Shown: positions 5,623 through 45,566, numbered from the stretch's first letter. The stretch is 64,000 nt of DNA from Thermoproteota archaeon (GCA_029887795.1 JARXPE010000003.1:28600-92599), one strand, 5' to 3'. Notes: generated by a model from the sequence alone, not told the origin. Numbers and translations: made by a program.

Positions 5623-5988
5623 ATGAAGAAGGAATTGTCCGAAAAATTTAAGAAAAAAATGGGCTTCACGCCCACAATAATGGAAATTGCCACAGAGTTA
5701 GACCCGAAGCTCATCACATTTTATGACTTCTGCGACTCGACTATACAGGATGACAGTGCATTACCATCTAAGATAAAGATGCTTATTATAATGGCTATGG
5801 GCGCACAACGCCACTGCAAGGAGTGTGTAGTCTCTGCAATGCGCGGTGCATACAAAAAAGGAGCGACGGAGGCTGAGATTTTAGACACCATAAGATGCAT
5901 CGCAGTTGCTGGTGGCGCTCCAGCACTTTCTGCATGCAAAGAGGCCCTTCAACTTCTCAAAGATAAGAAATTGGCTGAAGGGTGCTGA
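5623..5988 (+). CDS. Carboxymuconolactone decarboxylase (AhpD-like) family protein
   Basis: About 120 aa; motif HCKECVVSAMRGAYKKGATEAEILDTIRCIAVAGGAPAL is typical of the CMD/AhpD fold. Start moved to the internal ATG at 5623. Confidence 0.55.
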   Translation: MKKELSEKFKKKMGFTPTIMEIATELDPKLITFYDFCDSTIQDDSALPSKIKMLIIMAMGAQRHCKECVVSAMRGAYKKGATEAEILDTIRCIAVAGGAPALSACKEALQLLKDKKLAEGC

Positions 5989-6121
5989 CCTACCCCCATC
6001 TAATATTAGAATAACACTCTAAATTCAAATCTTGAAGGGATGAAAATATCATCGATCAGGCTATCGAGATTAATTACACCACGGCTAATTTAAATGGAAG
6101 GTTTTTTGGAGGCTTTATGCC

Positions 6122-6682
6122 TCACTCCTCATAGAGCACTCCTATATCCTTTAATTTCTGGTGAATTTTTTCCACCGCTATTTTTACTTCATCTTCATGC
6201 TTTGCCCCAGTGCAAACCATCTTTCCAGAAGAGAATATCAAAAGCACTACCTTTGGCTCACTCATTCGGTAAATGAGCCCCGGAAACTGCTCCGGCTCAT
6301 ACATTACATTTTCCAGCAAGAATGCTGCCTTCTCCAAGTTGACTTCCGCATTCAGATTAGCAGAGGCCACAATATTCTGAATCTGGATCTCTGGCGTACC
6401 TATGATCACAATATTTCTATCCTTGAGGTTCTTGATGATCTTCTTGACCGCATTGTGGACCTCCTTCTCGGATTTTGCCCCGGTGCATACCATCTTGCCC
6501 GAGGAGAATATTAGTGTGGCAGTCCTCGGCTTTGATAGCCTATAGACAAGCCCAGGAAATTGCTCAGGATTATACTCCACACCGGGCACGTTCCCAGAGA
6601 TAGCGTCCAAGTCGATATTCTGGTTCATTGTTACGGATGCCACGACATTTTCTATTCGAACAGAAGGTTTTAACACAATCAT
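6122..6682 (-). CDS. tbp: TATA-box binding protein
   Basis: Two direct repeats, each with [10 protein letters not shown].....[16 protein letters not shown]; 186 aa. Confidence 0.9.
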
Positions 6683-6707
6683 TCGCTCCGAAAAATTAAT
6701 TTATATT

Positions 6708-7313
6708 TTAAAAAACTTTGCCGTCATTTATAAAGCTTTTTTGTTTCTGATCTAAAGAACCAAAAAGATAGAATCTGGAGGGCAATATTATCAATATAAT
6801 CAAGACTAGCAATATCCCCAAAACTACCAGGGGGTTCTTTATCCATATGAAAGGATACCCAAGGTATGGGACATACCAGACAACCTTCCCTATCACTCTG
6901 TCTTCTGGCACCCAGCTCCTCGGATTGTATGGGTTCTCATCAGGGTAGGCGTTCGCGTCCCCCTTCGTAAGTATGTAGTACTTTCCATTTATCTCCTCCT
7001 TATCTATTGCTCTATGTGACCAAGGAACTGGGTCATATACAGCAAATAAGAAATAATCAGTGATCTTCGTTTCTGGAAAGTAAAAGACTATAACGTCCCC
7101 AACAGGCCTATCACCTGCAACTATCTCCTCACCAGAGACCTTTTGTATGAACAAGAGCGAGCCGGTTGGTATGGTCGGCTCCATACTCCCGGACATAACA
7201 GCGGCGAACGGCATATTAGTTCCAGAGACTGCCCTTGCAACTCCACTGAATCCAAATATGAAAATTAGAAAAACAAAAAGTGCCTTAAGAAAGAACTTGC
7301 TGTCTTTTGACAT
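6708..7313 (-). CDS. Archaeal signal peptidase I (S26/Sec11-like)
   Basis: N-terminal transmembrane segment; SGSMEPT catalytic-Ser motif; TKGDAN box; C-terminal transmembrane segment. Confidence 0.7.
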   Translation of the reverse strand: MSKDSKFFLKALFVFLIFIFGFSGVARAVSGTNMPFAAVMSGSMEPTIPTGSLLFIQKVSGEEIVAGDRPVGDVIVFYFPETKITDYFLFAVYDPVPWSHRAIDKEEINGKYYILTKGDANAYPDENPYNPRSWVPEDRVIGKVVWYVPYLGYPFIWIKNPLVVLGILLVLIILIILPSRFYLFGSLDQKQKSFINDGKVF

Positions 7314-15225: not shown

Positions 15226-15996
15226 GTGTGCACATTGAAAAAAGCGATCTTGCTCGAATCGGTATCAAAAAAATACGAGGTCGGCTCCAGTTCCCTAGAA
15301 GTTATTAAAGACCTCACATTTGACGTAAACGAAAATGAATTTGTCTGCATCGTCGGACCATCGGGCTGTGGTAAGACCACGCTGCTCAGAATCGTCTCGG
15401 GGCTTGAACCTCCCTCTTCTGGCAGGGTTCTCGTTTTTGACACCCCTCCAGACCCCAGAAGGCAGAAGTTCGGTGTGATCTTCCAAGAAGACTCTTTGCT
15501 TCCATGGAGGACTGTTCTTGGGAACGTCAAATTTGGGCTAGAGCTTCAGGGCTATAAAGAGACTGAACATGAAAAGATCGCCAGAACTTATATCGAGTTG
15601 GTGGGTCTGCAGGGGTTTGAAAACTACTACCCGCACCAAATATCGGGTGGTATGAAGAAGAGGGTTGCAATAGCTAGGGCTCTAGCTATAAACCCTGATC
15701 TCATACTTATGGATGAGCCCTTTGCGGATCTAGATGCACAGACGAGGTCTCTCATGCAAAGGGAGCTACTGAATGTATGGTCAAAACTAAATAAGACTGT
15801 CCTGTTTATAACTCACAATGTCGAGGAAGCGGTCTTTCTTGCTCAAAGAGTCTTTGTTCTGACCAAGCGCCCCTCGAAGGTTAAGCAAATAATCAACATC
15901 GATCTTCCCTATCCAAGAGCTAGGCTTAGCCCTCCCTTCATATCATACCGTGAGCGCATATTGACCGCCTTCCATGAGGAATTGGAGGGTATCTGA
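15226..15996 (+). CDS. ABC transporter ATP-binding protein, NitT/TauT (SsuB-like) family
   Basis: Walker [10 protein letters not shown], signature LSGGMKKRVAIARAL, Walker B LILMDEPF; GTG start abuts the permease stop. Confidence 0.85.
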   Translation: MCTLKKAILLESVSKKYEVGSSSLEVIKDLTFDVNENEFVCIVGPSGCGKTTLLRIVSGLEPPSSGRVLVFDTPPDPRRQKFGVIFQEDSLLPWRTVLGNVKFGLELQGYKETEHEKIARTYIELVGLQGFENYYPHQISGGMKKRVAIARALAINPDLILMDEPFADLDAQTRSLMQRELLNVWSKLNKTVLFITHNVEEAVFLAQRVFVLTKRPSKVKQIINIDLPYPRARLSPPFISYRERILTAFHEELEGI

Positions 15997-15997
15997 A

Positions 15998-16546
15998 ATG
16001 GAAAAAGATAAAGATCTAACTATTCGTGACGAGCTGATAAATGCTGCTTTGACTTCCAACGAAGCGTTCTCGTCAACCCTTAAATCTATAATGCGGCGTA
16101 TGGATATCACTGCTAAGGATCTGAGTGAAGGCTCTGGCGTCCCCCTCAGCACCATAAATAAGATACTTTCTGAATGCAGAGACCTCCGCCTATCAACACT
16201 CAGAGATATTCTGAGATATCTCCATTCTCTTGAAACACCTCCTGCAGACATTATTATAGGAGTAATCGCTGCAAGGCCGTCTCTCGACGCGATTTCCAAG
16301 CATCAGCTATTGGCAAAAGGTAAACGCGTGATAATAAAAGAATACCCTGCCTTAACAATAGAAGATGCCATCATAAGCGCGATTAAGGCAGAGCGAGAGC
16401 ATGTGAACGGTCTAGTCTGCGCCTCTATAGTAGCCAGTATAATAGAAAAGTTTGTGCGAATCCCAATCGCCACAATAAAGGTCGAGGAATCAAACATTTT
16501 AGACTCCGTACACCTACTTGTGGAAAAAATAACCTCTACAAGCTAG
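15998..16546 (+). CDS. XRE-family helix-turn-helix transcriptional regulator with an uncharacterised C-terminal domain
   Basis: HTH segment ITAKDLSEGSGVPLSTINKILSECRDLRLSTLRDILRYL. ATG at 15998 behind GGAGGG; the track's ATG at 15974 lies inside the ABC ATPase gene. Confidence 0.55.
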   Translation: MEKDKDLTIRDELINAALTSNEAFSSTLKSIMRRMDITAKDLSEGSGVPLSTINKILSECRDLRLSTLRDILRYLHSLETPPADIIIGVIAARPSLDAISKHQLLAKGKRVIIKEYPALTIEDAIISAIKAEREHVNGLVCASIVASIIEKFVRIPIATIKVEESNILDSVHLLVEKITSTS

Positions 16547-16707: not shown

Positions 16708-18042
16708 ATGCCAAAATATCCGGACAAAGTGAACTTGTACGACGACCGCGGAAAACTTTTTGAGACAAACGTTCCAGTTGAGGCTCTGAGCCCACTGAAA
16801 AACACTGCTATACAAAAAATCATCGCTTACGTAAAGCAATGCGTTGCGGTTAACTTGGAAGGTGTGGAAAAGGCGCTAGCTACAGGAGAAGTCGGCGGAA
16901 AATGGTGCATCATTAGAGGTAGATCTTTGAAACTCGATCTGGTAAAGAACGCAGGCAGCGTGGCGGACTCTTTGAAGAAGTGCTTGCAAGTAGATCCCGA
17001 TGACGACACAGAAGTAAAGGTTCTAAAGGGTGGAAAGCACCTCCTCGTAAAGGTTCCAGCAAAGAGGTTAAACGCTGGAGTTGAGTACACTACCGGAGCA
17101 ACAGCAGTGGCTGCTGCCCTCTGCTGCACAATAATTGAGAACTTTAATGTGAACATATGGGATGCAGACCTAGTACACGCTGCCGTCTGGGGAAGGTATC
17201 CGCAGACCATGGAGATGCTGGGTGGAAATGTGTCTTCACTATTGGCAGTGCCACAACAAAATGAGGGTATGGGCTACGCCCTTAGGAACATACCATGTGC
17301 ACACATCGCTCTCATCGCAAAGAAGAACGCTATGAATGCTGCCGCCCTCTCATCGATCTTGGAACAGACTGCGATGTTCGAGATGGGTGATGCCATTGGT
17401 AGCTTCGAGAGGTTCCACCTCTTGGGTCTAGCCTACCAGGGATTGAATGCTGACAACATAGTCTACGACCTTGTGAAAGAGAATGCAAAAACTGGAACAC
17501 TCGGAGATGTTGTCATTTCAACAGTGAAGAGAGCCCTATCGGATGGTGTCATCAAACCCTTAAAGAAGACACCGTCTGGATACACGCTCTACACCACAAG
17601 CGATCTCAATAAGTGGAATGCCTATGCTGCTGCAGGTCTATTGGCTGGAACAATGATCACTTGCGGTGCTGCCAGATCTATGCAACACGCTCCATCAGTC
17701 TTCATATACTTTAACGACCTTTTGGAGAGGGAGACTGGACTTCCAGGTGTGGACTTTGGTAGAGTCACAGGTACAGGCGTGGAAATGTCATTCTTCAGTC
17801 ACTCAATCTATGGTGGAGGAAATCCTGCCGTATTCCACGGAAACCACATAGTGACTCGACACAGCAAGGGCTTCACCATTCCATGCGTTGCTGCTGCCGT
17901 GGCGCTTGATGCTGGAACCACCATATACACCCCAGAGAGGATCAGCGGCGTAGTTGGTGAGGTCCTGAGCGAGGTACCTGAGCTTAGAGAATCTTTACGC
18001 TATGTGAATGAGGCCGCGGTCTCAATAAAAGGAGGAGTCTAA
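16708..18042 (+). CDS. mcrB: Methyl-coenzyme M reductase beta subunit
   Basis: [15 protein letters not shown]..., ...ALRNI..., [49 protein letters not shown] are hallmark McrB blocks. Start at the ATG at 16708 behind a ribosome-binding site; the track start at 16642 is an over-extension. Confidence 0.95.
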
Positions 18043-18044
18043 AA

Positions 18045-18821
18045 ATGGTAGAATATAAGCCCCAATATTACCCTGGAGGATCAAATGTAGCCGCCAATAG
18101 GCGGAAATACATCGATCCCAACTACAAGCTAAGAAAGCTAAGAACAATAAGCGACGATGACTTAGTTCGATTAATGGGTCATAGGGTCCCAGGCGAGGCT
18201 TACAAGAGCGTCCACCCGCCACTGGAAGAACTTGGCGAGCCTACATGCCCAATCAGGGAGATTGTAGAACCTACGCCCGGGGCAAAAGCCGGTGACAGGA
18301 TTCGTTACATACAATTCACAGACTCTGTATACTTTGCCCCATTGACTCCCTACATGAGAGCTTGGATGGGTCATATGCGATACCGTGGAGTGGACATTGG
18401 TGTTCTATCGGGGCGTGTCCCTCTTGAGGCCAGAGAGCGAGATCTTGAGAAGGTTGCTAAGGAACTCGTTGAGACCGAGATCTTCGATCCGGCGAGGGTC
18501 GGGATCAGGGGTGCCACAGTTCACGGTCATGCTTTGAGGCTCGACGAGAACGGTCTCATGTTCGATGCCCTGCGCAGGTTCCAGTATGATAAGAACAAGG
18601 GCGAGGTCGTCTATGTTAAGGACCAGGTTGGAGTTCCGCTCGACAGACCGATATACGTAGGAAAACCCACCCCTGAAGAGGAGCTGAGAAAAATAACCAG
18701 CCAGTTCAGAGTTGACGGAGAAGCCTTCAGGAATGACAAGGAACTGATTGAGTTCGTTCAGAGGATTCACATGCTCCGAACGGAAGCAGGTTTCGATCCT
18801 AACAAGGTGAAAGATCTATAG
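18045..18821 (+). CDS. mcrG: Methyl-coenzyme M reductase gamma subunit
   Basis: [55 protein letters not shown] are McrG blocks; starts 2 nt after the mcrB stop. Confidence 0.95.
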
Positions 18822-18832
18822 GAGGAATTGTA

Positions 18833-20503
18833 ATGAGCGAAGAGAAGAAGATGTTCCTAGAAGCGCTCAGGAGAAAGTTCAAGGAGTCTCCTGAAGAGAA
18901 ACAAACAAAATTCTACATATATGACGGATGGAAGCAGTCAAAGAGAAAGAGGGAGTTCGTAGAAGCTGCTCAGAAAATAGCCAAAGAGAGGACCGTCCCC
19001 TTCTACAACCCTGACCTCCACCTCGGCGGCATCCCATTAGGGCAGAGAGTCTTGATGCCTTACCGTCTATCGGGTACAGACATCTATTGCGAGGGTGATG
19101 ACCTTCACTTCATAAACAACGCCGCCATGCAGCAGATGTGGCATGACATAAGGCGGACTGTGATCGTCGGACTCGATGCTGCGCACACGGTCCTACAGAA
19201 GAGGCTCGGCAAAGAGGTCACCCCTGAAACCGTGAACCACTATCTAGAGGTACTTAATCACGCGCTGCCTGGTGCGGCTGTAGTTCAGGAGCACATGGTC
19301 GAGACACACCCTGGATTGGTCTCTGACAGCTATGTCAAGGTATTCACAGGAGACGACGAGCTCGCGGACGAGATCGACGATAGATTTCTTATCGACATAA
19401 ACAAGGAGTTCCCTGCAGAGCACGCGGCACAGCTAAAGGCTGCCATCGGAAAACGCATTTACCAGGTATGCCGCATGCCAACACTCGTGGCGATGACCTG
19501 CGACGGAGGTACAATGTCAAGATGGGCGGCTATGCAGATCTCAATGTCAATGATAAATGCATACAAACTTATGGCTGGAGAGGCTGCGGTGGGAGAATTC
19601 GCCTTCGCAGCAAAGCACGCAGAAGTCATAGAGATGGGCACTCTTATGCCTTGGAGGCGAGCAAGAGGTCCCAACGAGCCCGGAGGAATTCCATTGGGCT
19701 ATATGGCGGATATCTGCCAGGCCTCGAGGGTCAAGCCCGAGGATCCAGTCTGGGTCGCCTTGGAAGCCATTTCCATGGCAGCTGTCCTATACGACCAGTT
19801 CTGGTTCGGAAGCTACATGTCTGGTGGCGTCGGGTTCACGCAATATGCAACTTGCACCTACACTGACAACATCCTTGATGACTTCTGCTATTATGGCGCC
19901 GAGTACGTTAAAAAGAAGTACGGCGGTTTCGCAAAAGTCAAGCCGAGCTGGGATGTGATAAACGATGTTGCCACGGAGGTCACATTATACGGTCTGGAGC
20001 AATATGAAAGGTACCCTGCGCTGATGGAGACTCACTTCGGAGGATCCCAGAGGGCTGCCGTAGTAGCAGCTGGTGCTGGCGTCTCCGTGTCACTGGTGAC
20101 CGGTCATTCCACTGCAGGAATCAACGGTTGGTACCTCAGCCAGCTACTCCACAAGGAAGAGATGGGTCGACTTGGCTTCTACGGCTACGACTGCCAGGAC
20201 CAATGCGGATCAGCCAACAGCTTCTCATGGAGGAGCGACGAAGGTCTACCCTTCAACCTGAGGGGAGTGAACTACCCCAACTATGCTCTCAATGTCGGAC
20301 ACCAGTCAGCATACTGCGGTATAGTCTCCGCCGCTCACGGTGGGAGAGGCGACGCTTGGACAACAAACCCGTTGATAAAAGTTGCCTTTGCAGATAAGGA
20401 TCTGAAATTTGACTTCACGCACCCGAGGCTATGCTTCGGAAAAGGCGCTCTCAGGGAGTTCATGCCAGCTGGCGAGCGCGATCTAATAATCCCAAGCCAC
20501 TAA
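18833..20503 (+). CDS. mcrA: Methyl-coenzyme M reductase alpha subunit
   Basis: [73 protein letters not shown] are McrA blocks. GGAGG ribosome-binding site precedes the ATG. Confidence 0.95.
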
Positions 20504-20531
20504 ACCCCCTCTTTTTTATTGTGTTTTTAAA

Positions 20532-21119
20532 ATGACCGGATATTCATCGCTTAAGAGAATTTTTGAAATTATTGTCGACCTATCCAATTTAACGCCAGAG
20601 CTTGCCAAAGAAAAGTACTCTGAATTTCCATCACTTGCGAGTCATATTGCAATTTTATTTTCAAGAGACTATTTACACGATGTATTATCAAGGTTGGAAC
20701 TTCAACTGAGAATTGTGGAGAGCTATGATCCGCCCATCAGACCTGCGCTGGATCCTTACTCTTCTACACAACTTGGCATCTTCAGCAAGAACTTCTCTGA
20801 CTGGGAAATTGGACGCCTACTCAATTATCCAGCGTGCTGCATCGATTCGTTTTCCGAAGAACTCCGTTATGGATTAGACTCGAAACATTTAGAGGAACTG
20901 AACACTATAAAAGAAGAGGTTGTATTCGTCACAACTGCGGGATTTGTGCCCCACAGCATATTTTGTAAAGAAGCGTCAGAGAGCGCACTTATTGGCCTCC
21001 TGAAGTTAGACGCGTTGAAAGTATTAAATGATCTGGAGAAGGAGCTTGCACGCAGGCTCCCTCATGCTCACCCGGAATACCAAAAACACTATTATGACAT
21101 GCTAATCCCAGATGTCTAA
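20532..21119 (+). CDS. Conserved archaeal protein with a YPACCIDSF Cys-pair motif (DUF483-like, tentative); probable fourth gene of the mcr operon
   Basis: 195 aa, same strand, 28 nt after the mcrA stop. Family name is from memory only. Confidence 0.45.
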   Translation: MTGYSSLKRIFEIIVDLSNLTPELAKEKYSEFPSLASHIAILFSRDYLHDVLSRLELQLRIVESYDPPIRPALDPYSSTQLGIFSKNFSDWEIGRLLNYPACCIDSFSEELRYGLDSKHLEELNTIKEEVVFVTTAGFVPHSIFCKEASESALIGLLKLDALKVLNDLEKELARRLPHAHPEYQKHYYDMLIPDV

Positions 21120-21171: not shown

Positions 21172-21945
21172 TCAAGATCGAGTAGCTTGCATTCTCCTAA
21201 TTTCCGATATTATTTTGGGTATATCTCTGAGAGAACTAACAATATAATCCACTTCAGGCATTAGATCTTCCGACGCGTCGCAAGACTCTCTTTTTACAAG
21301 CACAGAGAGGTCCGCTTCCCTCATAGCTAGGAGGTCGTTAACATCATTTCCCACCATTACCACAAGTCCATAAAATCTTCTGAGACTCTTTACAAAATTC
21401 ATCTTTTCTTTGGGTGACGCATCGGCAAGAACAAACCTCTTGTCTATCCCTAAAAACTTGGCGCACTTCAAGGTTGCCTCTCGACAGTTTCCTGTGGCAA
21501 GGAATACGTCATCGTCAGAATCTCTGAGCTTCTTAATGACTTCTTTAACATCATCGTAAAGTTTCCCTCCCAAACCCACAGCATGTGTTGGGGTCCCGTC
21601 TTTATTCAGTATTACCGCTGCACATGTACCAATCTCTGAACCACAGTGAGTTTTCGCCTCAAATATTACCCTGTTTAATGCTTCTAAAATGTCATTTTGC
21701 CTCAAGATCTCATCGCTGACCTTTGGGGAAGTCGGCAAGGGTGAACAAATTACCTTTCCGATCTTAATGTTTTTTTGTTTTTTTGCGTTCGGGTCGCCCT
21801 TCACATTCACGAGGTAGCCACCAATCTCTATAACAAATTTCAAAGTATTTACATGGAAAAGAAGTTCCTTTCTTTGAAGATCATATATTACTCTACAAGG
21901 CCTTAGTATAGTTCCCGATTTGTCAAATACTATTGCTGCCCTCAA
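21172..21945 (-). CDS. HAD-superfamily hydrolase resembling the catalytic domain of P-type ATPases (soluble P-type ATPase-like phosphatase)
   Basis: Motif I FDKSGT; motif VMVGNDVNDLLAMREADLSV equivalent to the P-type ATPase GDGxNDxP hinge. Confidence 0.65.
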   Translation of the reverse strand: MRAAIVFDKSGTILRPCRVIYDLQRKELLFHVNTLKFVIEIGGYLVNVKGDPNAKKQKNIKIGKVICSPLPTSPKVSDEILRQNDILEALNRVIFEAKTHCGSEIGTCAAVILNKDGTPTHAVGLGGKLYDDVKEVIKKLRDSDDDVFLATGNCREATLKCAKFLGIDKRFVLADASPKEKMNFVKSLRRFYGLVVMVGNDVNDLLAMREADLSVLVKRESCDASEDLMPEVDYIVSSLRDIPKIISEIRRMQATRS

Positions 21946-21958
21946 AAGTTAGCCCTCT

Positions 21959-22270
21959 TCATCCAGCACCGCACACGTTCCCACTGGTATCTATTTTGCC
22001 CTCGTCTCTGATTTCAGGTGTTTCGGATTTCTCTTTTTCAACCTCTTTTATTTTCTCTTGTTCCACTTCTTTTTCCATCTCTTGCCTAGGCTCTTTTACA
22101 AAATCCTCTTCAACCGTTTCTAGAAAGTCCTCATCGTAAAATAGTCCTGTTGAATCCAACTTAGCCCAGACTTTGCCATCCATTTCTCTCAATTCAACAA
22201 TTCTGCCGAGGGTACCAGTCCTTTTGTATATAACTGATGCCCCTTCCCTGAGCACACTTTGCCCCTCCAC
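21959..22270 (-). CDS. Small protein with an acidic EKE-rich tail (KOW-like N-terminus), hypothetical
   Basis: 103 aa; N-terminal beta-rich ...GTLGRIVELREMDGKVWAKLDSTGLFYDEDFLE, then a low-complexity acidic C-terminus. Confidence 0.35.
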   Translation of the reverse strand: MEGQSVLREGASVIYKRTGTLGRIVELREMDGKVWAKLDSTGLFYDEDFLETVEEDFVKEPRQEMEKEVEQEKIKEVEKEKSETPEIRDEGKIDTSGNVCGAG

Positions 22271-22325: not shown

Positions 22326-23255
22326 TTGGAAGACCTTAAAGAGATTGTGAGCAAGACAAGATCGTACAAAGGGCTATCAAGAAAGGCCCAGATTGGGGAG
22401 ATTGTTAATATACTTGGCGAGGTTGACTATGACGACGCTGGAATATTGAATGTGGAAGGACTCAATATTGTGGTTTCTACAGACGGCATAGCAGAGGATC
22501 TAGTCAAGTCTGATCCTTGGTTTGCTGGGTATTATTCTGTCCTTGTTAATGTCAATGATGTGGTGATAAAGGGTGCTAGACCTCTTGGATATGTGAACGT
22601 TATATCTGGACCTAGAGAGATTAGGAACAAGATGGCAGAAGGCATAAAGGCTGGACTTGAAAAGTACAACGTCAAACTGCTCAAGGGTCATACACATCCG
22701 GACTCTTCATACGCGGCAATTGACGCCGCGGTGGTTGGAATAGCAAAAAAGGTCGTAAGGGGAACCGACGCCCGTCCTGGCGACGAAATTGTGATGGCCA
22801 TCGACCTTTCAGGATCGTTTGGTCTAAAGGGCTGGGTTAAATGCTTTGATAGTACAGTTAAAAAGTCATCTAAACAAGTTCAAGATATGATCTCTGCCAT
22901 AATCTCTGTCATAGAAACTGGAAAAGTGCATTGTTCTAGGGACATAAGTGCCCCTGGAATATTAGGAAGTCTGGCAATGTTATGTGAGGCTAGTGGTGTT
23001 GGAGCAGAAGTCTCTCTGGACAAGATCCCTGCCCCAAAAGGCTCTTCGCTTTCTGAGTGGTTGACTTCATACCCTGCAATGGGATTTATATTTGGCTCCT
23101 CTACTTCCAATGTCTTTGAGACCTTGAAGAATTCTGGTTTCTCTGTGGAATCTGTAGGTCGCTTCACAGCCGACAAAAAAATAATCGTGTCTATGGATCA
23201 TAAAAAAGAAATCTTCATGGATCTAGCGAGGGAGTCTGTCTTCGGATTGAGATAG
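22326..23255 (+). CDS. AIR-synthase-related (PurM/HypE/ThiL-like) protein; candidate methanogenesis marker protein 2
   Basis: VVSTDGIAEDL and downstream glycine-rich segments characteristic of the PurM-like N and C domains; TTG start; lies in the MCR island. Confidence 0.55.
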   Translation: MEDLKEIVSKTRSYKGLSRKAQIGEIVNILGEVDYDDAGILNVEGLNIVVSTDGIAEDLVKSDPWFAGYYSVLVNVNDVVIKGARPLGYVNVISGPREIRNKMAEGIKAGLEKYNVKLLKGHTHPDSSYAAIDAAVVGIAKKVVRGTDARPGDEIVMAIDLSGSFGLKGWVKCFDSTVKKSSKQVQDMISAIISVIETGKVHCSRDISAPGILGSLAMLCEASGVGAEVSLDKIPAPKGSSLSEWLTSYPAMGFIFGSSTSNVFETLKNSGFSVESVGRFTADKKIIVSMDHKKEIFMDLARESVFGLR

Positions 23256-24851
23256 TTCCGCGATCTCCTCTGGGGAGAAGGAGTTCACGACTTCACATAC
23301 GGGGCCCCTCATTGCTATCTTCCCGTCTCTGAGCAGTAGCGCTTCGTCACAGGTATTCATGACAAACCCCATATCGTGCGAGACTATTAAAAAAGTCTGC
23401 CGGAGCTCGTGCCTTGCATTCTTTATTGATTTGGAAACATCCTGCTGCGTTATTGGATCCATTGTGCCGGTAGGCTCGTCTAATATTACTAGGATCGGCT
23501 CTCTTATTAGGACTTGGGCAAGCGCGACCCTATGCCTCTCGCCCTCGCTCAACTCATCAGGGTACTTATTCAAAATAGGCTCTATCAGACTTTCTTGGAA
23601 ACCAGCCGCTCTCAAGACCATGGCTGCCTTGAATTTGGCAAATTCGTCTGGCAATTCAAGCCCGATGGCATCAGTAAGGTTCTCTTGCACAGTCCTGTGT
23701 GGATAAAGCGAGTACTCTTGGTGAAGCAAACCGATGTATGGCGTCGCTCTGCCGCGCCCCATAGGCCCTGGTTGTAACATGTCCACCCATTCATCACCTA
23801 TCCTCAGCCAGACCCTGCCAGATGTCGGTTCCGTAAGACCTGCAATGATCCTCGAAAGCGTCGTCTTCCCTGCCCCACTCATCCCTACAATGCCAAATAT
23901 CTGCCCCTCCCTAACCTCAAAGGAGACGTCATCTAGCGCTCTAACAACCCCTTTGTCTATGGAGAAGTAATGCTTCTTCAGCCCCTCTACCCTGAGTATT
24001 GTATCTCCCGCCTCTGCGGGCACCTCTTTTGATATGGTTTCTGCCTCTGATAGGAACTCCCTCACGATTTCCTTCGGGTCTCCTATGACCTTCACACTTC
24101 CGTTCTCTAACAGTATTGCCCTCTCACTCAAAGCTTCTACTGCCTCGGGCAGGTGTGATGTGACCAGCATGGTTATGTTTTTACCCTTGACCTCTTCGTT
24201 CAATATCCTGTATACCATCCTTGCACTCAGCGGATCGAGCGTCCCCGTGGGTTCGTCTGCCAGCAACAGTATGGGTCTTATTGCCAACTGCCTGCCTAGT
24301 ACGACCCTCTGCTTCTCACCACCACTGAGATCCCTCGCCGCATGGAGTAGCCTATGTTCCAGGCCCATCCTCTTGGCAAGCTCGAGCGCCTTGCGCCCAA
24401 CATCGGCATTCTCGAGTTCAGCTTTCTCTAACGCCTCAACAAAATTCTCGTACACGGTGAGGCTGCCGTAAAGAGCAAAGGTTCTTTGAAACATTATTGC
24501 TATCCTATTTTTAATGTCTTTGGCTGACTCCCTATCCTCCCAGAAGTCTACCTCAATAAGTTCCATCTTTCCACAACATCTAGGACAAACCTTCCCTGCC
24601 CTGCTAGGCCCCTCAACGAAGCCACATTCCTTGCATGATGCTACTCGGTATATCACTTTACCTGCCGTGGGAGCATATTCTCCAATCCCTTTAAGCATTG
24701 AGAGAAGCACACTCTTACCAGAACCGCTCTTCCCAAGAATCCCGACTCTTTCGCCTTCGCGAATTACTAGTGACACATCCTTGAGAACGTAATGCCCGTT
24801 AAACTTTTTGGAAACGCCATCTACGATGATCAATGCCTCCCTCATCGTCAT
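23223..24851 (-). CDS. atwA: MCR system component A2 (AtwA-like): soluble tandem ABC ATPase with a Zn-ribbon insert
   Basis: Two full ABC cassettes (GKSGSGKS/LSGGEKQRV/LLLADEPT and GMSGAGKTT/LSEGERHRVALAQVL/ILDEPTG) with no transmembrane domain. CKECG...CPRCCG insert in cassette 1. Next to ycaO-tfuA. Confidence 0.7.
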   Translation of the reverse strand: MTMREALIIVDGVSKKFNGHYVLKDVSLVIREGERVGILGKSGSGKSVLLSMLKGIGEYAPTAGKVIYRVASCKECGFVEGPSRAGKVCPRCCGKMELIEVDFWEDRESAKDIKNRIAIMFQRTFALYGSLTVYENFVEALEKAELENADVGRKALELAKRMGLEHRLLHAARDLSGGEKQRVVLGRQLAIRPILLLADEPTGTLDPLSARMVYRILNEEVKGKNITMLVTSHLPEAVEALSERAILLENGSVKVIGDPKEIVREFLSEAETISKEVPAEAGDTILRVEGLKKHYFSIDKGVVRALDDVSFEVREGQIFGIVGMSGAGKTTLSRIIAGLTEPTSGRVWLRIGDEWVDMLQPGPMGRGRATPYIGLLHQEYSLYPHRTVQENLTDAIGLELPDEFAKFKAAMVLRAAGFQESLIEPILNKYPDELSEGERHRVALAQVLIREPILVILDEPTGTMDPITQQDVSKSIKNARHELRQTFLIVSHDMGFVMNTCDEALLLRDGKIAMRGPVCEVVNSFSPEEIAELSQSEDRLPR

Positions 24852-24892: not shown

Positions 24893-25552
24893 TCATACAC
24901 TCCTATTGATTGTCGTCAGTTCTCTGATCTTCTTTAAAACTTCAATCGCATCAATCCGCTTTTGATCGACTCTCTCTCTTTTCAACAATTCTAGAATGAA
25001 CTTTGCCCTTTCTCTGCCTAATTTGTCTATGGCATTCTGAATTATCCTACTGTAATTTCTGAGGTGAAAGGGGGTCTCCTTAGCACTCTCTATTATGATC
25101 TCTCCGTCCGCCTTACTGATCATGCCTCTTGATATCAGTAGCTCCAAAGTAGCTCTTATATTGACCAAAGGCTCGGAGAGTGGTTGATATGTGTTTGGAT
25201 GGAATACAACCGCCACTTCGTCATCAGCGCTAATAACACCTTGTTTATACCATCTGTAAATCTTCCCGACTCCGATCATGCCGTAGAGATCCAACTCGCA
25301 AGCCCTCAGAGCTCCTATACTAGATCCGCCGACCACCTTTACTCCCTTTTTAAGGGCATAAAGTATCTCACGATGCGAAACTGCTGTTTTCTGGTAGAAG
25401 ACGCCATCCACAAGCCCTATTATCTCGAACCCCTCATCAACAGCTCCCGCCACATCTCCCCTCCCAGCAGGTGGCCTGTACTCAACATCGTCCAAAATTT
25501 TTTCCGCCTCTTCTACAGGCAGACTTGGTCCTAAAAACACAACAACTTTCAT
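24893..25552 (-). CDS. tfuA: TfuA-like protein (partner of YcaO for McrA thioglycine formation)
   Basis: MKVVVFLGPSLPVEEAE...PPAGRGDV...GSSIGALRA is the TfuA signature. Start moved to the ATG at 25552 (GAAGGT ribosome-binding site), 25 nt after the ycaO stop; the track start at 25618 overlaps ycaO. Confidence 0.8.
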   Translation of the reverse strand: MKVVVFLGPSLPVEEAEKILDDVEYRPPAGRGDVAGAVDEGFEIIGLVDGVFYQKTAVSHREILYALKKGVKVVGGSSIGALRACELDLYGMIGVGKIYRWYKQGVISADDEVAVVFHPNTYQPLSEPLVNIRATLELLISRGMISKADGEIIIESAKETPFHLRNYSRIIQNAIDKLGRERAKFILELLKRERVDQKRIDAIEVLKKIRELTTINRSV

Positions 25553-25577
25553 AACCTTCTTCACACTTTCGATTTTT

Positions 25578-26783
25578 TCAACATTGACTTTTCTTGATCT
25601 TTTGGAGCGCCCTAGCACCTATTCTGTCTTTGTCCAGTGCATAAACCTCTAAACCTGGGACTATGACCCGCACGGCGGGAATGTTGACTTCATTTCTCGT
25701 CAAATCCACAATTATGACCTCGTTCAACCCCGCCTTTTTAAGCTTATTTATGATGTGGTTTATGTCCTCCAAAACATCATCACTATCATAGCCTTCAAGT
25801 TCGCTTATGCTTACCCGATCACCGGAACCCTCAAACCACTTCTTATTCAACCTCTTCATGCGCTCATATCCTATCCTTCTCGCAAAAACTGCCTTGTAGG
25901 TGTCCTCCCTAGTCCCATGAATCGTTGTAAGCCTGCTCTGGGCAGCCTCAGTCAGCGCCCTAACCAGGGCGATCTCTGGCACAAGGTGCGTCCCAACTCC
26001 AAGCGAAAGAAGCGCTGGATCTTTAGTCATCTCATCATCTATCGCAACCGATATTGTGGGTATCCCTATGTCTGATGTTATGTCTTTTATATAGACTTGC
26101 ACCGAAGCCTCCCTGAATCTTCTTATAAGTTCCTCTGCCAAGTCACAACCCTCGACCAACAAATCTCTACCCTTAGTAACTCCCAACTCAAATAGAGACC
26201 AAGCATCCCTCTCTATGACCTCCAAGAGCCCATGCAGAATGGCTTCCTCTATCTCATTCCCTACTGCCAATCCATTGGTATTGGTTCTGAAGAGCTGGTT
26301 TTCCCCCCTGTAGGGATGGAATACTGCCTCTGCTGGAACTAGGACTGCTTTCCCATGAGTCAGCGAGTGCCCATGTACCCACTCAAGATTTTCACTATGA
26401 GAATAGCGCCTTAGTTTAGGAAGATTCAGGGCAAATGGATCGAGCACGCAGTATGACTCGGATAGTGATTCATAACTGCCTTTTATTATTCCAATTTCTC
26501 TTGGCTCTCCTGAGAACCTTTCTATTCCCTCCATTATCGCCGAGATCTTTGCCTCCTCGGGAACATGACCCTTACCGGTGTATACTGTTATCGCACCTTC
26601 TGCAGCAAGGGGTCGCATTGCCGTGAAAACTGGTATCCCTATCCTGTCCAGTCCTGTTATGTCCGCCACTCTAGTTATTCCCGCCTTACTGTAAACTTTT
26701 TCTAGCAGCTCTAAAGTTTCCATCAGAGGCTTAGCTCGATGGGTGCCCTCTTTGTGACGCTTTTTTATGGAACGAAGTATCAT
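25578..26783 (-). CDS. ycaO: YcaO-domain protein (methanogenesis marker 1; McrA glycine thioamidation)
   Basis: ITRVADITGLDRIGIPVF and downstream ATP-binding YcaO blocks; 401 aa; directly upstream of tfuA. Confidence 0.85.
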   Translation of the reverse strand: MILRSIKKRHKEGTHRAKPLMETLELLEKVYSKAGITRVADITGLDRIGIPVFTAMRPLAAEGAITVYTGKGHVPEEAKISAIMEGIERFSGEPREIGIIKGSYESLSESYCVLDPFALNLPKLRRYSHSENLEWVHGHSLTHGKAVLVPAEAVFHPYRGENQLFRTNTNGLAVGNEIEEAILHGLLEVIERDAWSLFELGVTKGRDLLVEGCDLAEELIRRFREASVQVYIKDITSDIGIPTISVAIDDEMTKDPALLSLGVGTHLVPEIALVRALTEAAQSRLTTIHGTREDTYKAVFARRIGYERMKRLNKKWFEGSGDRVSISELEGYDSDDVLEDINHIINKLKKAGLNEVIIVDLTRNEVNIPAVRVIVPGLEVYALDKDRIGARALQKIKKSQC

Positions 26784-26892: not shown

Positions 26893-28149
26893 TCATCTTC
26901 CTTCTTCTTCAAGTTCCTTCATACCGGAGACCATAACTGCCACACCCACTGCACCTATTAGGTTCGGTCTTTCCGGAACGATCACATCGACACTCAAAAT
27001 CTCTGACATGGCCTTAACGAGCCCTTTTATGAGCGCTGTGGAGCCGACCTGCACAATCGGGTACCTGATGTCTATCTCCTGAAGCTGCTGTTCGAAGACC
27101 TGCTCCGCGACGCTGTGACACGCCGCCGCGGCAACATCCTCGACCTTAGCCCCGCTAGCAAGACCCGCGACCAGATCTTGTAGTCCAAATACTATGCAAT
27201 AGGCATTCATGGGGACTTTTCTGTAATCACCCTTCATTGCAAGATCTCCGAACTCTTCAAGAGATACTCCCAGTCTCTTTGCGCTCGTCTCTATAAATCT
27301 TCCGGACGCCCCTGCACAGACTCCTCCCACCGTAAAGCTATCCGGTATACTGTCATAGAGGGTGACTGCTTTGTTGTCCATCCCTCCTATGTCTATTACA
27401 GTAGCATCTCCCTTCTGCCTATCGCAGAGGTATAGTGCCCCCTTTGAGCAAGTGGAGACCTCCTCCATCGCAAGCTTGGCCTTATACGCCTCCTTTAGAA
27501 TCATTCTGCCATAACCTGTTACACCTATAGCCTCCAAACTTTCCAGGCTGACCTTTGCTTCTTTAAGTGCCATATTGAGTGCTAATTGCCCGCTCTCAAA
27601 TACACTCGTTGTCGGGATCCACCCTGAACCGATGATCTCGTCGTCCTTCATTATGACCGCCTTTGTTGTCGTAGACCCTGAGTCTATCCCGGCAGTCAGC
27701 CCCTCCTGTTTTGTCCTGGCGAATAGCGGTTTCTTTCCGATTATACTGACGAGGGCCTCCATCCTCAGCAGCAGAGCGCCCGCCTTGGTCCTCTCCGTGA
27801 ATGAGTAAGTCACAACAGGGATCTTTGTTTTGCTCTGAATGTATCTCCTGATAATACTTCGGGTAAGTGCGCCCTCCGCGCATTTGAAACATGTAGCTAT
27901 GAATACCCCGTCAGCCTCAACCCTTCCTTCCACGACCGCTTTTGCCCTTGCCATCATCACCTTTAGACCTGGACTTGCTACATGAAATCCAAGCTCATCC
28001 TCAATTGATCTTATCTCAGCTAGGTCGACCTCTGGGATAAAGATCTTGCCGCCAACTATTTCGGCAGCTTTCTCAATCTCATTTTGTATGCCACTATATT
28101 CCGTTCCACAGGATATCTGCGCTATCCTGATCTTTCTCGCCATCTTCAT
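26893..28149 (-). CDS. BadF/BadG/BcrA/BcrD-type ATPase (CoA-substrate-specific enzyme activase family) with an N-terminal roughly 140-aa extension; candidate methanogenesis marker 15
   Basis: [14 protein letters not shown] phosphate-1 motif and [10 protein letters not shown] phosphate-2 motif of the ASKHA/BcrAD family. Confidence 0.55.
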
Positions 28150-36713: not shown

Positions 36714-37268
36714 TTACTCTTGATCTCCACCCACACCAACAACTATCGTCCCGATATTGGGATCGTCCTCAGAGACTCCAAACTTCTTCTTCAAATAAAG
36801 ATCTGCAGGGGGAGACGGGCTTCCTACAACTATTCCCAAACCTGCTAACTCAGGTATTTGAAGGGGGAGCATGATTAAGCTGATCTTGTCAATCTTCTCT
36901 TTTATCAGACGCATCTTGTCTTTGTAGAATACAAGGTTTCCCATAACAATATTGCCCTCATTTTTTAGCTTTTCCAACTCCCCCTCATCATAGACGTCCT
37001 CACCAATGGTTTCCTCATCGCAGACTATCTTTACGAGCGACGTCTTTGGCCATCTGAGACTTGCGTTGGTTATACAGGCATAAACGGCTTTCTTGCGAAG
37101 GGCCTCTCTGACACCCAAATTTATGCCTTTGCATAGTCCCATTAAGACCTTTCCCTCAGCCTCCCTCTCTAGCCTTTCGATCTCAGCCCGGTCCTCTTGG
37201 CTTAAGAGTGTAGCCTTTATGATTCCCTTCAGTCCCATCAATTTTTCCAGAACATTACCTTCTGACAT
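36714..37268 (-). CDS. Uncharacterised protein; last gene of the mmp/A2/RACo operon
   Basis: 184 aa; overlaps the 3' end of the RACo-like gene by 14 nt, which suggests cotranscription. Confidence 0.4.
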   Translation of the reverse strand: MSEGNVLEKLMGLKGIIKATLLSQEDRAEIERLEREAEGKVLMGLCKGINLGVREALRKKAVYACITNASLRWPKTSLVKIVCDEETIGEDVYDEGELEKLKNEGNIVMGNLVFYKDKMRLIKEKIDKISLIMLPLQIPELAGLGIVVGSPSPPADLYLKKKFGVSEDDPNIGTIVVGVGGDQE

Positions 37269-39156
37269 ATCTCCTCACGACCCTTGGTGCCTTAACATTG
37301 GCTACTACCTCAGGAAAATCTTCCAGTTTACTATTGGGCATGTACATGGCATTAACGTATTCCTCCTCAAAAATTGGTTCTGCTGCCAGCTCTACATACT
37401 TAACCGCCTTCGCGATAGCCCCTGCCTCACACCTCATCTCTACTGATTTGAGGCACATCCTCGCACCAGATCCAGCTGTATTCCCCAAAAATGAGATCTT
37501 GGATATTGGCAGCTCCGGTATCATCCCTATCGTTCTGGCATTCTCGGGATCTATGTAATTCCCAAAAGCGCCAGCTATTATTATCCCCGATAGGTCTTCT
37601 CTCCTGAAACCACTCTTTCTCATGAGCGTCATGTACCCTGCATACATCGCAGCTTTTGCCTTCTGAATCTCCCTAATGTCCTCCTGAGTTATTACAATGT
37701 CCTCTTTTCCGGATGCTGTATCCTCTTTAAACACCAAGACAAACTCCTTTCCGTCTGCCCCGTCCCTGATCCTCTTATGATCTTGAAGCACGATCTTTCC
37801 TGACATATCAATTACTCCTCTTTTGAGCATCTCCGCGACCGCGTCTATTATGCCCGAACCACAAATGCCTCTGGCTCTCTCTCCGTCTATAGTATTGTAC
37901 TCCACCTCAAAATCCTCTCCAATCTTGACTTTTTCTATGGCGCCGCTGGCGGCTCTCATTCCGCATTTGATGTGTGCCCCTTCAAATGCTGGACCTGACG
38001 CGGTCGAGCATGACCATAGCCCCTCCTTACATCCCAATACTACCTCGGTATTTGTTCCTACATCCATTAGCAGCGTCAACCTCTCCTTCTCATGTATTCT
38101 AGACGCTAAAATATCCGCTATCGCATCAGCCCCGACAAAACCCGCAACGTTTGGGAGCGTATGAATATTGCCCGCCGGGTTTATCCTAATGCCCAAATCC
38201 CTAGCTCTGACATTGTAAGCATTCCCCAAAACTGGGGGGTAAGGTGAAAATCCGAGTGACCTGACATTAAGCCCCAAGAAGAGGTGATGCATCGCTGTAT
38301 TTCCCACAGCCACAAGCTCGTAGAGGTCTTCTCTCCTGATACCTGTTTCCTCAAGCCCTCTATCTATGAGTGAATTTATGCCGTCGATTATTGCTTTTTG
38401 AATTTCTCTAAGGTTTTCATCAGACTGGGAGGCGTATCCTATCCTTGATATGACATCTTCTCCATACCTTATCTGCGGATTCATTATGCCATCTGCGAAT
38501 ATGATCCCTCCATCCAATAAGTCCACTATGAAGACGGCAAGCTTGGTTGTACCTATATCCACTGCTACCCCATAGAGTTCTTTGGTTCTGTCCCCCAGCT
38601 GAATATTCACAATCTCATGATTATTCAAGATTGTAAAAGTAACCTTCCAATCACCCTCCCTTAGTATCTTTGGCATCTTCTTAATGGTATCATAATCTAT
38701 TAGAACTGGATCAAACCCCATTCCTGCCAGGACCTGGGCGATCCTGACATCGTCTCCCTTAGGATCTTGAAGAGAGGGTGGCAAAACTTCCACATAGACT
38801 TTTTTGACGTTCGGCCTCAGAGTGATTGCAGGCTCCTTGCCCATTATCACGAGCCTCTGTCTCCCGACCCTGCTTTGGTCTGGTACTTGGACCACCATGT
38901 CCTCCTCAACAATTAACTGGCACGCCAGGCGGTAGCCTTTTCTTATTCTCTCATCACCGACCCTTTTCTTCTCTTGTTCAGTAGGGGGCGGGGCTCTTCC
39001 CTCAAGTATTTCAACTAGACATTTACCGCAGAAACCCTTTCCGCCGCAGATGTTTGCCAAATCGACTCCTGCCCTCAGTGCCGCAAACATGACAGTGGAT
39101 CCTGCGGGGACTGAAACCCTCTTCCCCTCAGGCAAGAACTTCACTTCAAACTCCAT
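37255..39156 (-). CDS. RACo/RamA-like ATP-dependent reductive activase (N-terminal 2Fe-2S ferredoxin domain plus ASKHA ATPase/DUF4445)
   Basis: N-terminal plant-type ferredoxin Cys pattern (CGGKGFCGKC...C). Central VAVDIGTTK and DVGTNTE ASKHA phosphate motifs. Start ATG overlaps the stop of the upstream A2-like gene (atggagtttga). Confidence 0.65.
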   Translation of the reverse strand: MEFEVKFLPEGKRVSVPAGSTVMFAALRAGVDLANICGGKGFCGKCLVEILEGRAPPPTEQEKKRVGDERIRKGYRLACQLIVEEDMVVQVPDQSRVGRQRLVIMGKEPAITLRPNVKKVYVEVLPPSLQDPKGDDVRIAQVLAGMGFDPVLIDYDTIKKMPKILREGDWKVTFTILNNHEIVNIQLGDRTKELYGVAVDIGTTKLAVFIVDLLDGGIIFADGIMNPQIRYGEDVISRIGYASQSDENLREIQKAIIDGINSLIDRGLEETGIRREDLYELVAVGNTAMHHLFLGLNVRSLGFSPYPPVLGNAYNVRARDLGIRINPAGNIHTLPNVAGFVGADAIADILASRIHEKERLTLLMDVGTNTEVVLGCKEGLWSCSTASGPAFEGAHIKCGMRAASGAIEKVKIGEDFEVEYNTIDGERARGICGSGIIDAVAEMLKRGVIDMSGKIVLQDHKRIRDGADGKEFVLVFKEDTASGKEDIVITQEDIREIQKAKAAMYAGYMTLMRKSGFRREDLSGIIIAGAFGNYIDPENARTIGMIPELPISKISFLGNTAGSGARMCLKSVEMRCEAGAIAKAVKYVELAAEPIFEEEYVNAMYMPNSKLEDFPEVVANVKAPRVVRRYVRR

Positions 39157-40900: not shown

Positions 40901-41812
40901 TCACGAGAAATAGGACTCTGGCAAGATCCTAACAAGTATGTAATCCCTCATTTGAGATCTTGTTATACGAGATAGTTCATCGAGCCTTTTTCCCTCAACG
41001 ACCACAGAGGCAACTTTCTCCTTGTACTCGTCGTACGGCAACTTAATCCTGACGCCGTCGACCTTCAATGTTACTGGATTTGGTGAGAGGGCGTCCAAAA
41101 CTTCCGGAACCTGCCTCTCCACCTCGTTCTTTACAAGCGCTGGCTCTATTATTAATGGATCCAAATCCATTTCCCTCCGCCTTCCCTCGATCAGTTTTCC
41201 TGCTAGCTCTGAGACCCTTCTCAACTTCTCTATCATGTCTACAGTTCTTGCCCTCTCTGGATATCTCCCTATTCCTCCAACATAACCACTCGCTCCCTCC
41301 ACCTCCAGTTCGGGTGGTCCGCCAGTCACTATCACTGGTACGGATAACTCCTTGAACAACTTTGGCTTAAATCTCCTCAAACAGTGCTCAAAGTTCCCGA
41401 GCGTAAAAACTGCGAGATCATGTTCTTCAATAAGCTGCCTCTCCTGTACTGATGTATGCACTATCTTCTGACCTACTCCCCTAGCCAGTCCCATTATGTT
41501 TGTCTTTGCACCGTGCCTCCTCAAGTTCTCAGCTATATCACAGGCAGGGTGTGGAAGGTGGTGCCTGGATAATGTAGGGGCCACAACTACAACCTCGGTT
41601 CCTATGAGTGGGGCATCTCTGAGCTTGCCCTTTACCTCTTGGACTATTTCTTGCAACCTTCCAACTTCTTCCTCTGGGATCGCCAAATTCATTATTAGGT
41701 CCAGTCCGATCACAGTCTTTTGTATCACAAAGCCTCCAACATCTTCTACAAACTCCAGTAAAAGTTCATGCTTATACATGCCGCCCTCAAAGATGACATA
41801 TTTTAACATCAC
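40901..41812 (-). CDS. Candidate methanogenesis marker protein 7
   Basis: 303 aa; size, operon position (with marker 17-, marker 3- and A2-like genes) and composition fit Mmp7. Assignment by context and memory. Confidence 0.45.
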   Translation of the reverse strand: MMLKYVIFEGGMYKHELLLEFVEDVGGFVIQKTVIGLDLIMNLAIPEEEVGRLQEIVQEVKGKLRDAPLIGTEVVVVAPTLSRHHLPHPACDIAENLRRHGAKTNIMGLARGVGQKIVHTSVQERQLIEEHDLAVFTLGNFEHCLRRFKPKLFKELSVPVIVTGGPPELEVEGASGYVGGIGRYPERARTVDMIEKLRRVSELAGKLIEGRRREMDLDPLIIEPALVKNEVERQVPEVLDALSPNPVTLKVDGVRIKLPYDEYKEKVASVVVEGKRLDELSRITRSQMRDYILVRILPESYFS

Positions 41813-45559: not shown

Positions 45560-45566
45560 AATTAAA

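Follow-up and report, generated by a model that had tools for sequence, protein, structure and literature searches.

The DUF483 gene downstream of mcrA

The enzyme methyl-coenzyme M reductase (MCR) underlies almost all biological methane; how its modified residues, its cofactor F430 and its active Ni(I) state are acquired is only partly known, and several of these steps have no assigned protein. The structural genes mcrBGA lie within a 64,000-nucleotide (nt) stretch of DNA deposited under Thermoproteota archaeon (GCA_029887795.1 JARXPE010000003.1:28600-92599), which is called the window here, and whose source is a Methanomethylicaceae archaeon. Directly behind mcrA lies a 195-residue open reading frame (ORF) with an ATG start, which encodes a protein of the Pfam family DUF483. 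A sequence-only reading of the window had taken this gene for a probable fourth cistron of the mcr operon, whose product could be a chaperone or F430-handling factor that replaces McrC and McrD. The comparative analysis described below suggests, with a probability somewhat better than even, that DUF483 serves MCR biogenesis as an accessory protein in Thermoproteota (TACK) methanogens. Its gene is separated from mcrA by a terminator-like junction. The features at the locus are as follows.

16708..18042, + strand: mcrB (TIGR03257, 659 bits)
18045..18821, + strand: mcrG (TIGR03259)
18833..20503, + strand: mcrA (TIGR03256, 1005 bits), with its TAA stop codon at 20501-20503
20504..20531, + strand: 28-nt mcrA-DUF483 spacer, ACCCCCTCTTTTTTATTGTGTTTTTAAA, with a C-rich stretch, T6 (20512-20517) and T5 (20524-20528)
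20532..21119, + strand: DUF483 ORF
20835..20840, + strand: codons of the adjacent pair C102-C103, at the N-terminus of a predicted helix, residues 101-110 (alignments and predicted secondary structure)
20952..20966, + strand: codons of H141-S-I-F-C145, which reads C-S-x-x-C in most homologues (alignments)
21172..21945, - strand: HAD-type hydrolase resembling a soluble P-type ATPase catalytic domain (Pfam Hydrolase and NCBIfam partial P-type ATPase matches)

The placement given by the sequence-only reading was borne out: DUF483 lies on the same strand as mcrA, 28 nt past it, and the next gene, the HAD-type hydrolase, is convergent on it at a distance of 52 nt. The suggested family identity was likewise confirmed, as residues 55-172 of the ORF product matched DUF483 (PF04467) with an E-value of 1.7e-31; the score was 109.2 bits (cut-off 25), and the match covered profile positions 1-121 of 122. 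DUF483 was the only family returned for the protein by a Pfam search at E<=10, which gave no iron-sulfur (Fe-S) family match, and searches of NCBIfam and PHROGs returned no match. The hidden Markov models of McrC (PF04609 / TIGR03264) and McrD (PF02505 / TIGR03260) did not match it either, in agreement with the earlier statement that it is neither of these proteins. The HdrB-type CCG domain (PF02754) was considered as the identity of the protein and rejected; neither a match to the model nor the CxnCCGxmCxxC motif was found.

Orthologues of the window protein, at 48-98% identity, were found in about 30 genomes, and the annotation of the closest homologues (98-48% identity) is that of DUF483 proteins from Candidatus Methanomethylicaceae / Verstraetearchaeota. 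Pairwise ratios of nonsynonymous to synonymous substitution rates (dN/dS) against the orthologues were 0.07-0.14. The DUF483 gene is a real protein-coding gene under purifying selection; the family match, the orthologues and a dN/dS of about 0.1 show that it is functional and selectively maintained. A confident AlphaFold2 model built from 20 orthologues (pLDDT 92.4, pTM 0.88) consists largely of helices and has three short strands, consistent with the earlier description of an adjacent cysteine pair in an otherwise helical protein. No solved structural relative of the model was found.

Conserved cysteines and a putative metal site

The window protein contains the DUF483 motifs RPALDP (residues 70-75), YPACC (99-103), GFVPHSIFC (137-145) and LPHAHPEY (176-183). 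The segment NYPACCIDSF, singled out by the sequence-only reading, corresponds to residues 98-107 (nt 20823-20852). Fifteen positions were invariant among 21 diverse long-form members of the family (R70, P71, A72, P75, G94, Y99, P100, C102, C103, F107, G137, F138, P140, C145, and Y183), and H180 was almost invariant. The only cysteines of the window protein are C102, C103 and C145, and alignments showed the first two to be invariant across every long-form homologue. Position 141 is a cysteine in all lineages outside the Methanomethylicia and a histidine in most Methanomethylicia sequences, including that of the window.

The three invariant cysteines and the alternation of Cys and His at position 141 point to a putative metal or Fe-S site, which would hold either zinc or an Fe-S cluster. 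The ligand set is predicted in this way because a Cys/His exchange occurs at one position beside three invariant cysteines. Adjacent cysteine pairs are commoner in cluster sites than in mononuclear sites.

The junction between mcrA and DUF483

A scan for bacterial-type promoters and terminators is uninformative for an archaeon, and the junction was analysed instead by T-runs, Shine-Dalgarno motifs and comparison among loci. The mcrA-DUF483 junction was extracted from 29 loci. The spacer measured 15-57 nt in 27 of these; the remaining two had spacers of 149 and 263 nt. At 28 of the 29 loci, all but the one designated L031, a C-rich stretch was followed by a run of T6-T9, often by two such runs, beginning 5-20 nt past the mcrA stop codon. 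The spacing of the tract from this stop is maintained, while its distance to the DUF483 ATG ranges from -3 to -36, indicating that it belongs to the end of mcrA and not to the start of DUF483. Within the window, only 8 of 64 ORFs have a run of T>=6 in the first 45 nt past their stop codon. An oligo-T/U-tract is an archaeal termination signal, for which five to six T are enough in vitro (PMC2253867), and in Methanococcus maripaludis terminators with two U4-tracts show the highest termination efficacy (PMC8716108). The spacer thus looks like an archaeal U-tract terminator.

The translation signals of the four genes also differ. A GGAG-type Shine-Dalgarno motif was present upstream of mcrB in 20/24 loci, mcrG in 22/23 and mcrA in 24/25, unlike DUF483, for which it was found in 2/29; the ATG of the window gene has no such motif upstream. 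Synonymous variation was seen in the last codons of mcrA, and no TATA-like element is conserved there. A promoter of DUF483's own within the 3′ end of mcrA was rejected for the short-spacer loci (15-30 nt), which lack such an element and whose spacers leave no space for a promoter. At Methanosuratincola-type loci, where the spacer is 49 nt, the T-tract lies approximately -36 to -23 from the ATG, and could double as a weak TATA-like element. One Methanomethylicaceae metagenome-assembled genome (MAG) departs from the other loci: its 263-nt spacer (L025, 7719-7983) contains a (GATACT)x7 microsatellite, and GGTGGTG precedes the DUF483 start. A literature search found no RNA data on the mcrA-DUF483 junction and no transcriptome of a cultured Methanosuratincola.

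These features bear directly on the proposal that DUF483 is a plain fourth cistron of an mcrBGA-DUF483 operon, encoding a stoichiometric chaperone or F430 carrier that stands in for McrC or McrD. The shared strand, a spacer of 15-57 nt in most loci, the lack of a conserved promoter-like element in the 3′ end of mcrA, and the conserved mcrA-DUF483 synteny (adjacency in 27 of 28 loci, see below) agree with such an operon. Against it are the T6-T9 tract past the mcrA stop at 28 of 29 loci, the high termination efficacy of two U-tracts in M. maripaludis, and the missing Shine-Dalgarno motif of DUF483. The proposal had been said to fail if a strong terminator lay between the two genes, and a terminator signal is present in form, as T6 and T5 in the window spacer and as T>=6 within 45 nt of the mcrA stop at 28 of 29 loci. 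Taken with the evidence on McrC, McrD and F430 given below, a plain fourth cistron is improbable. Because of the conserved U-tract after mcrA and the missing Shine-Dalgarno motif, DUF483 would be at best an attenuated read-through gene. Attenuated read-through appears to be its likeliest expression route, since the short-spacer loci leave no room for a promoter.

Gene order in Methanomethylicia and other lineages

A synteny scan with one genome per species, in which the window proteins were mapped on the loci, covered 29 Methanomethylicia-type loci and one Methanocaldococcus locus. The order HTH-mcrB-mcrG-mcrA-DUF483, followed by the HAD hydrolase and DUF2098 genes on the opposite strand and then by Mmp2, A2 and TfuA, was found in 27 of 28 assessable loci; one further locus (L007) begins inside the DUF483 gene. 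The place directly behind mcrA is conserved across Methanomethylicia, a class of methanogens that does not belong to the Euryarchaeota. Outside this group, the gene was found in four other arrangements.

L031 (GCA_054474235.1; DUF483 44% identical to that of the window): mcrBGA-DUF483-B12/radical-SAM (TIGR04014), then HAD and DUF2098
L032 (Ca. Nezhaarchaeota): mcrBGA, A2-like, McrD, B12/radical-SAM (TIGR04014), DUF2098-DUF483-Mmp5-Mmp15, McrC, A2, YcaO
L033/L034: DUF2098, A2-like, McrD, mcrAGB, YcaO; divergent DUF483-Mmp5-Mmp15; McrC, Mmp17, Mmp6, Mmp3
L044/L045 ('Ca. Bathyarchaeota' MAG): mtrE-H, McrD, A2-like, A2, YcaO, DUF483, HdrC/HdrB

The B12/radical-SAM genes matched TIGR04014, the model for methyl-coenzyme M reductase glutamine C-methyltransferase, with 485 bits at L031 and 505 bits at L032 (cut-off 360). 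The recurrent direct neighbours of DUF483 are McrA-modifying enzymes, the activation-complex subunit DUF2098, and Mmp5/Mmp15; inside the archaea it adjoins the glutamine C-methyltransferase twice and YcaO twice. In L032 the DUF2098 and DUF483 genes overlap by 4 nt. Cryo-EM and pull-down studies in M. maripaludis placed DUF2098 within the ATP-driven MCR activation complex, where it is bound to a loop of McrC (PMC12176620).

These neighbours raise a second possibility, that DUF483 is an accessory of the reductive activation of MCR, acting with DUF2098, McrC, Mmp3/7/17 and A2, for example as a small Fe-S protein that delivers or assembles clusters or electrons, and not as a factor of post-translational modification. 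Consistent with this, the Nezhaarchaeota genes of DUF2098 and DUF483 are translationally coupled, DUF2098 lies two genes off in Methanomethylicia and belongs to the activation complex (PMC12176620), DUF483 is followed by Mmp5/Mmp15 in two lineages, all have A2 in the vicinity, and the CC...CxxxC pattern could hold an Fe-S cluster. However, DUF483 was found neither in the McrC pull-downs nor in the cryo-EM complex of M. maripaludis, where an orthologue is not established, and the window protein matched no Fe-S family at the threshold given above. A role in activation is the main alternative, and a rather unlikely one.

The methanogenesis island of the window

The mcrBGA-DUF483 genes are embedded in a methanogenesis island of about 30 kb (window 16708-46043). 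The remaining genes of the island, together with the gene directly upstream of mcrB, are listed below.

15974-16546, + strand: HTH protein of XRE type whose C-terminal part is weakly PrpR_N-like, directly upstream of mcrB
21959..22270, - strand: DUF2098 protein (PF09871, 76.8 bits)
22326..23255, + strand: methanogenesis marker 2-like protein (Mmp2-like), AIR-synthase-related family (TIGR03267, E=2e-74, under the curated cut-off)
23223..24851, - strand: MCR component A2 (AtwA; TIGR03269, 766 bits)
24893..25618, - strand: TfuA-related McrA-glycine thioamidation protein (NF033432, 272 bits)
25578..26783, - strand: YcaO-related McrA-glycine thioamidation protein (Mmp1; TIGR03266, 464 bits)
26893..28149, - strand: methanogenesis marker 15 (Mmp15; TIGR03286, 649 bits)
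37255-39171: RACo/AcsV-like corrinoid activase
39146-40828, - strand: A2-like paralogue, a double-ABC ATPase (TIGR03269, 333 bits against a cut-off of 517)
40901-41812, - strand: Mmp7 (TIGR03274)
41809-42360, - strand: Mmp17 (TIGR03291)
42362-42781, - strand: Mmp6 (TIGR03272)
42778-44301, - strand: Mmp3 (TIGR03268)
44581-44898, + strand: McrD-like protein, 105 residues (TIGR03260, 43.7 bits against a cut-off of 100)
44918-45559, + strand: McrC (TIGR03264, 288 bits)
45534-46043, + strand: Mmp5 (TIGR03271, 209 bits)

The McrC and McrD-like genes lie 24 kb from DUF483 in the same window. The McrD-like protein is related to the McrD-like proteins of about 110 residues at L032 and L033 (tblastn, 1e-16 to 1e-20), and the McrD of Thermoproteota appears to be a truncated form. 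McrC and McrD also coexist with DUF483 at L032 and L033/L034, as does McrD at L044/L045. The claim that DUF483 replaces McrC or McrD is contradicted by this coexistence, which also counts against the stand-in version of the fourth-cistron proposal.

Several further observations concern the neighbouring genes. The start of mcrB was assigned to the ATG at 16708, which is preceded by GAGAGGAG; the listed ORF, beginning at TTG 16642, is too long, as judged from this motif and from the TIGR03257 match, which begins at residue 28 of the long ORF. The 161-nt region upstream of the mcrB start is very AT-rich and contains several TATA-like stretches. The HTH protein keeps its position before mcrB in nearly all Methanomethylicia loci and is a candidate mcr regulator; a T6 run follows the stop codon of its gene. 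The HAD hydrolase and DUF2098 genes are separated by 13 nt, and their pairing is kept in Methanomethylicia and L031. The Mmp2-like and component A2 genes are convergent and their 3′ ends overlap by 33 nt, so that the T6 run after the A2 stop falls within the Mmp2-like coding sequence. The A2-like ATPase recurs beside McrD in other lineages (L032, 3418-5169; L033, 20-1714; L044, 5252-6973), and these proteins may form a distinct family of A2 paralogues.

Range of the family and its viral relatives

Only 15 hits at E<=1e-3 were obtained when 1.84 billion cluster representatives were searched with a profile, and the DUF483 family is therefore small. The long-form members whose taxon is named are from Methanomethylicia, Nezhaarchaeota, a 'Bathyarchaeota' MAG (with mtr, McrD and A2 genes at the locus), Methanococcales and Methanopyri, and every one of them belongs to a lineage known to include MCR-encoding archaea. 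Phage-like and viral contigs also contain relatives with a PxCC...GFxPCS core, either short (about 100 residues) or fused, whose scores come close to the Pfam cut-off. The sequence-only reading had asked whether the family is restricted to MCR-containing archaea; in view of these marginal relatives it is not strictly confined to methanogens.

A literature search for DUF483/PF04467 found only a study of Thermus phages, in which the domain of the phages Cumys and phiMa was described beside radical-SAM genes, together with fusions to methyltransferase or radical-SAM domains (PMC11437467). Similar arrangements were found in two IMG/VR contigs. On L047 (3719-5149), a 476-residue protein consists of DUF483 (31.7 bits) and a C-terminal part with a weak methyltransferase-like match, and a radical-SAM gene (5669-6820) lies two genes downstream of the fusion. 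On L046 (2343-4489), a DUF483-like ORF abuts a radical-SAM gene. The viral DUF483-methyltransferase/radical-SAM module presumably modifies nucleic acid. A tblastn search of phage GenBank with a short DUF483 relative gave no hit.

The proposed role of DUF483

The accessory role in MCR biogenesis proposed at the outset is favoured by the adjacency to mcrA in 27 of 28 loci and by the four other gene orders within MCR clusters, and to this extent the MCR-linked function proposed by the sequence-only reading is plausible. The association did not extend to all loci. In the three Methanococcales loci examined and in the Methanopyri-type loci, DUF483 is found away from mcr and has no conserved set of neighbours.

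Methanocaldococcus indicus: GTP cyclohydrolase III, sirC-like, hemA, C5-epimerase-like, DUF483, U32 peptidase
Methanothermococcus okinawensis: DUF483 beside F420 ligase and TrkA
Third Methanococcales-type locus (assigned by similarity only): DUF483 beside DUF2120 and an Na/H exchanger
Methanopyri-type contigs: DUF483 between two KaiC-like ATPases

These loci are one of several points that weigh against the accessory role. At L013 (7986-8585), an orthologue of 55% identity lies between Hjc and metallophosphatase/IleRS genes, with no mcr within 8 kb. The family appears patchy among methanogens, with no hits seen in Methanobacteriales, class II or other methanogen orders by word- or pattern-limited, non-exhaustive searches. 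The proteins that co-purified with McrC in M. maripaludis did not include DUF483 (PMC12176620), and no radical-SAM gene adjoins it within the window. The MAGs with the L013-type locus are labelled Nitrososphaeria/Nitrososphaerales.

The M. indicus locus, with hemA and a sirC-like gene near DUF483, is also an arrangement that recalls F430 handling, a function suggested for the gene by the sequence-only reading. A link to F430 through these neighbours was rejected, because the hemA/sirC neighbourhood is absent from the other Methanococcales loci examined; no specific support for an F430-handling factor was found.

A further reading is that DUF483 is unrelated to MCR, and that its place behind mcrA reflects an inherited gene order of no functional significance. 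The Methanococcales and Methanopyri neighbourhoods, the L013 locus without nearby mcr, the terminator-like tract between mcrA and DUF483, and the distant relatives in viruses can all be read in this way. However, five local gene orders from different lineages all lie in MCR or methanogenesis-marker clusters, the named long-form members all come from lineages with known MCR-encoding archaea, and many spacers are too short to hold a promoter of the gene's own. Such a meaningless inherited adjacency is improbable.

Within the accessory role, DUF483 can tentatively be pictured as a metal-containing partner or adaptor in the post-translational maturation of McrA, a version that is possible but short of probable. 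It is favoured because the only recurrent non-archaeal partners of the domain are radical-SAM and methyltransferase genes, and because archaeal DUF483 adjoins the glutamine C-methyltransferase and YcaO. This role would parallel the partnership of the distant viral relatives.

The following sequence of events can be envisaged. Most mcrBGA transcripts would end at the U-tract, and DUF483 would be made from the minority that read through. Translation would proceed without a Shine-Dalgarno motif, perhaps through re-initiation following the mcrA stop close by, yielding a low, sub-stoichiometric amount of DUF483 relative to the abundant MCR/McrA. The Cys/His residues of the protein would bind a metal, as zinc or an Fe-S cluster, and DUF483 would act in the maturation of McrA, by modification or assembly, most likely as a partner or adaptor of modifying enzymes of the radical-SAM or methyl-transfer type. 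It would be neither a catalytic subunit of MCR nor a substitute for McrC or McrD. In its most specific and more speculative form, which is somewhat unlikely, DUF483 would be a metal/Fe-S adaptor that links nascent or unassembled McrA to radical-SAM/methyl-transfer enzymes, namely the glutamine C-methyltransferase and possibly Mmp10, or to YcaO-TfuA and is expressed in small amounts by programmed read-through, with a core that serves as a general radical-SAM/methyltransferase partner module in methanogens and viruses.

The gene is already known as an annotated member of an uncharacterised Pfam family. No earlier description was found of the systematic embedding of DUF483 in the MCR maturation clusters of Thermoproteota, or of the junction with a terminator and no Shine-Dalgarno motif. 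It is reasonable to regard DUF483, on these comparative grounds, as a new candidate of the MCR accessory set, not as a new kind of system. As such it is a concrete and cheaply testable candidate for MCR maturation. If the proposed role is correct, it could be a missing part for obtaining active Thermoproteota MCR in heterologous hosts, and it may matter for the expression of MCR or alkyl-CoM reductases of uncultured archaea in model hosts. The junction, with its strong-looking U-tract, no Shine-Dalgarno motif and no room for a promoter, offers a test case for how archaea set widely different expression levels for a structural operon and the accessory gene that trails it.

Comparison with known systems

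Among known proteins with a superficially similar cysteine pattern is the HdrB-type CCG domain (PF02754), with CC, about 37 residues and CxxxC. The closest comparison is with the Pfam DUF483 members of Methanopyrus kandleri (WP_011018927.1), Methanocaldococcus and Methanothermococcus, which share with the window protein the motifs RPALDP, YPxCC, GF(I/V)P(C/H)SxxC and LPHxH..Y and the same length class of 170-210 residues. They differ in having a cysteine at position 141, where the window protein has a histidine, and in genomic setting: the euryarchaeal members examined are scattered, whereas the window-type gene is fixed to mcrA. Neither a solved structure nor an assigned function was found for the family.

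The PxCC...GFxPCS core is also present in the viral and bacterial DUF483-domain proteins, which recur beside, or fused with, radical-SAM or methyltransferase genes, a pairing that is mirrored by DUF483 beside the glutamine C-methyltransferase at L031 and L032. They are short (about 100 residues) or fused, reach about 30% identity over some 60-100 residues, and their presumed substrate is DNA, not McrA.

DUF2098 resembles DUF483 as a small protein of formerly unknown function in the same conserved gene cluster, but it belongs to a different family, and binding to McrC has been seen structurally for DUF2098 only (PMC12176620). McrC and McrD, like DUF483, are encoded by small non-catalytic genes in or beside the mcr structural genes and presumably aid the maturation of MCR. 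They have no sequence relationship to DUF483, and they classically lie between mcrB and mcrG, whereas DUF483 follows mcrA behind a U-tract.

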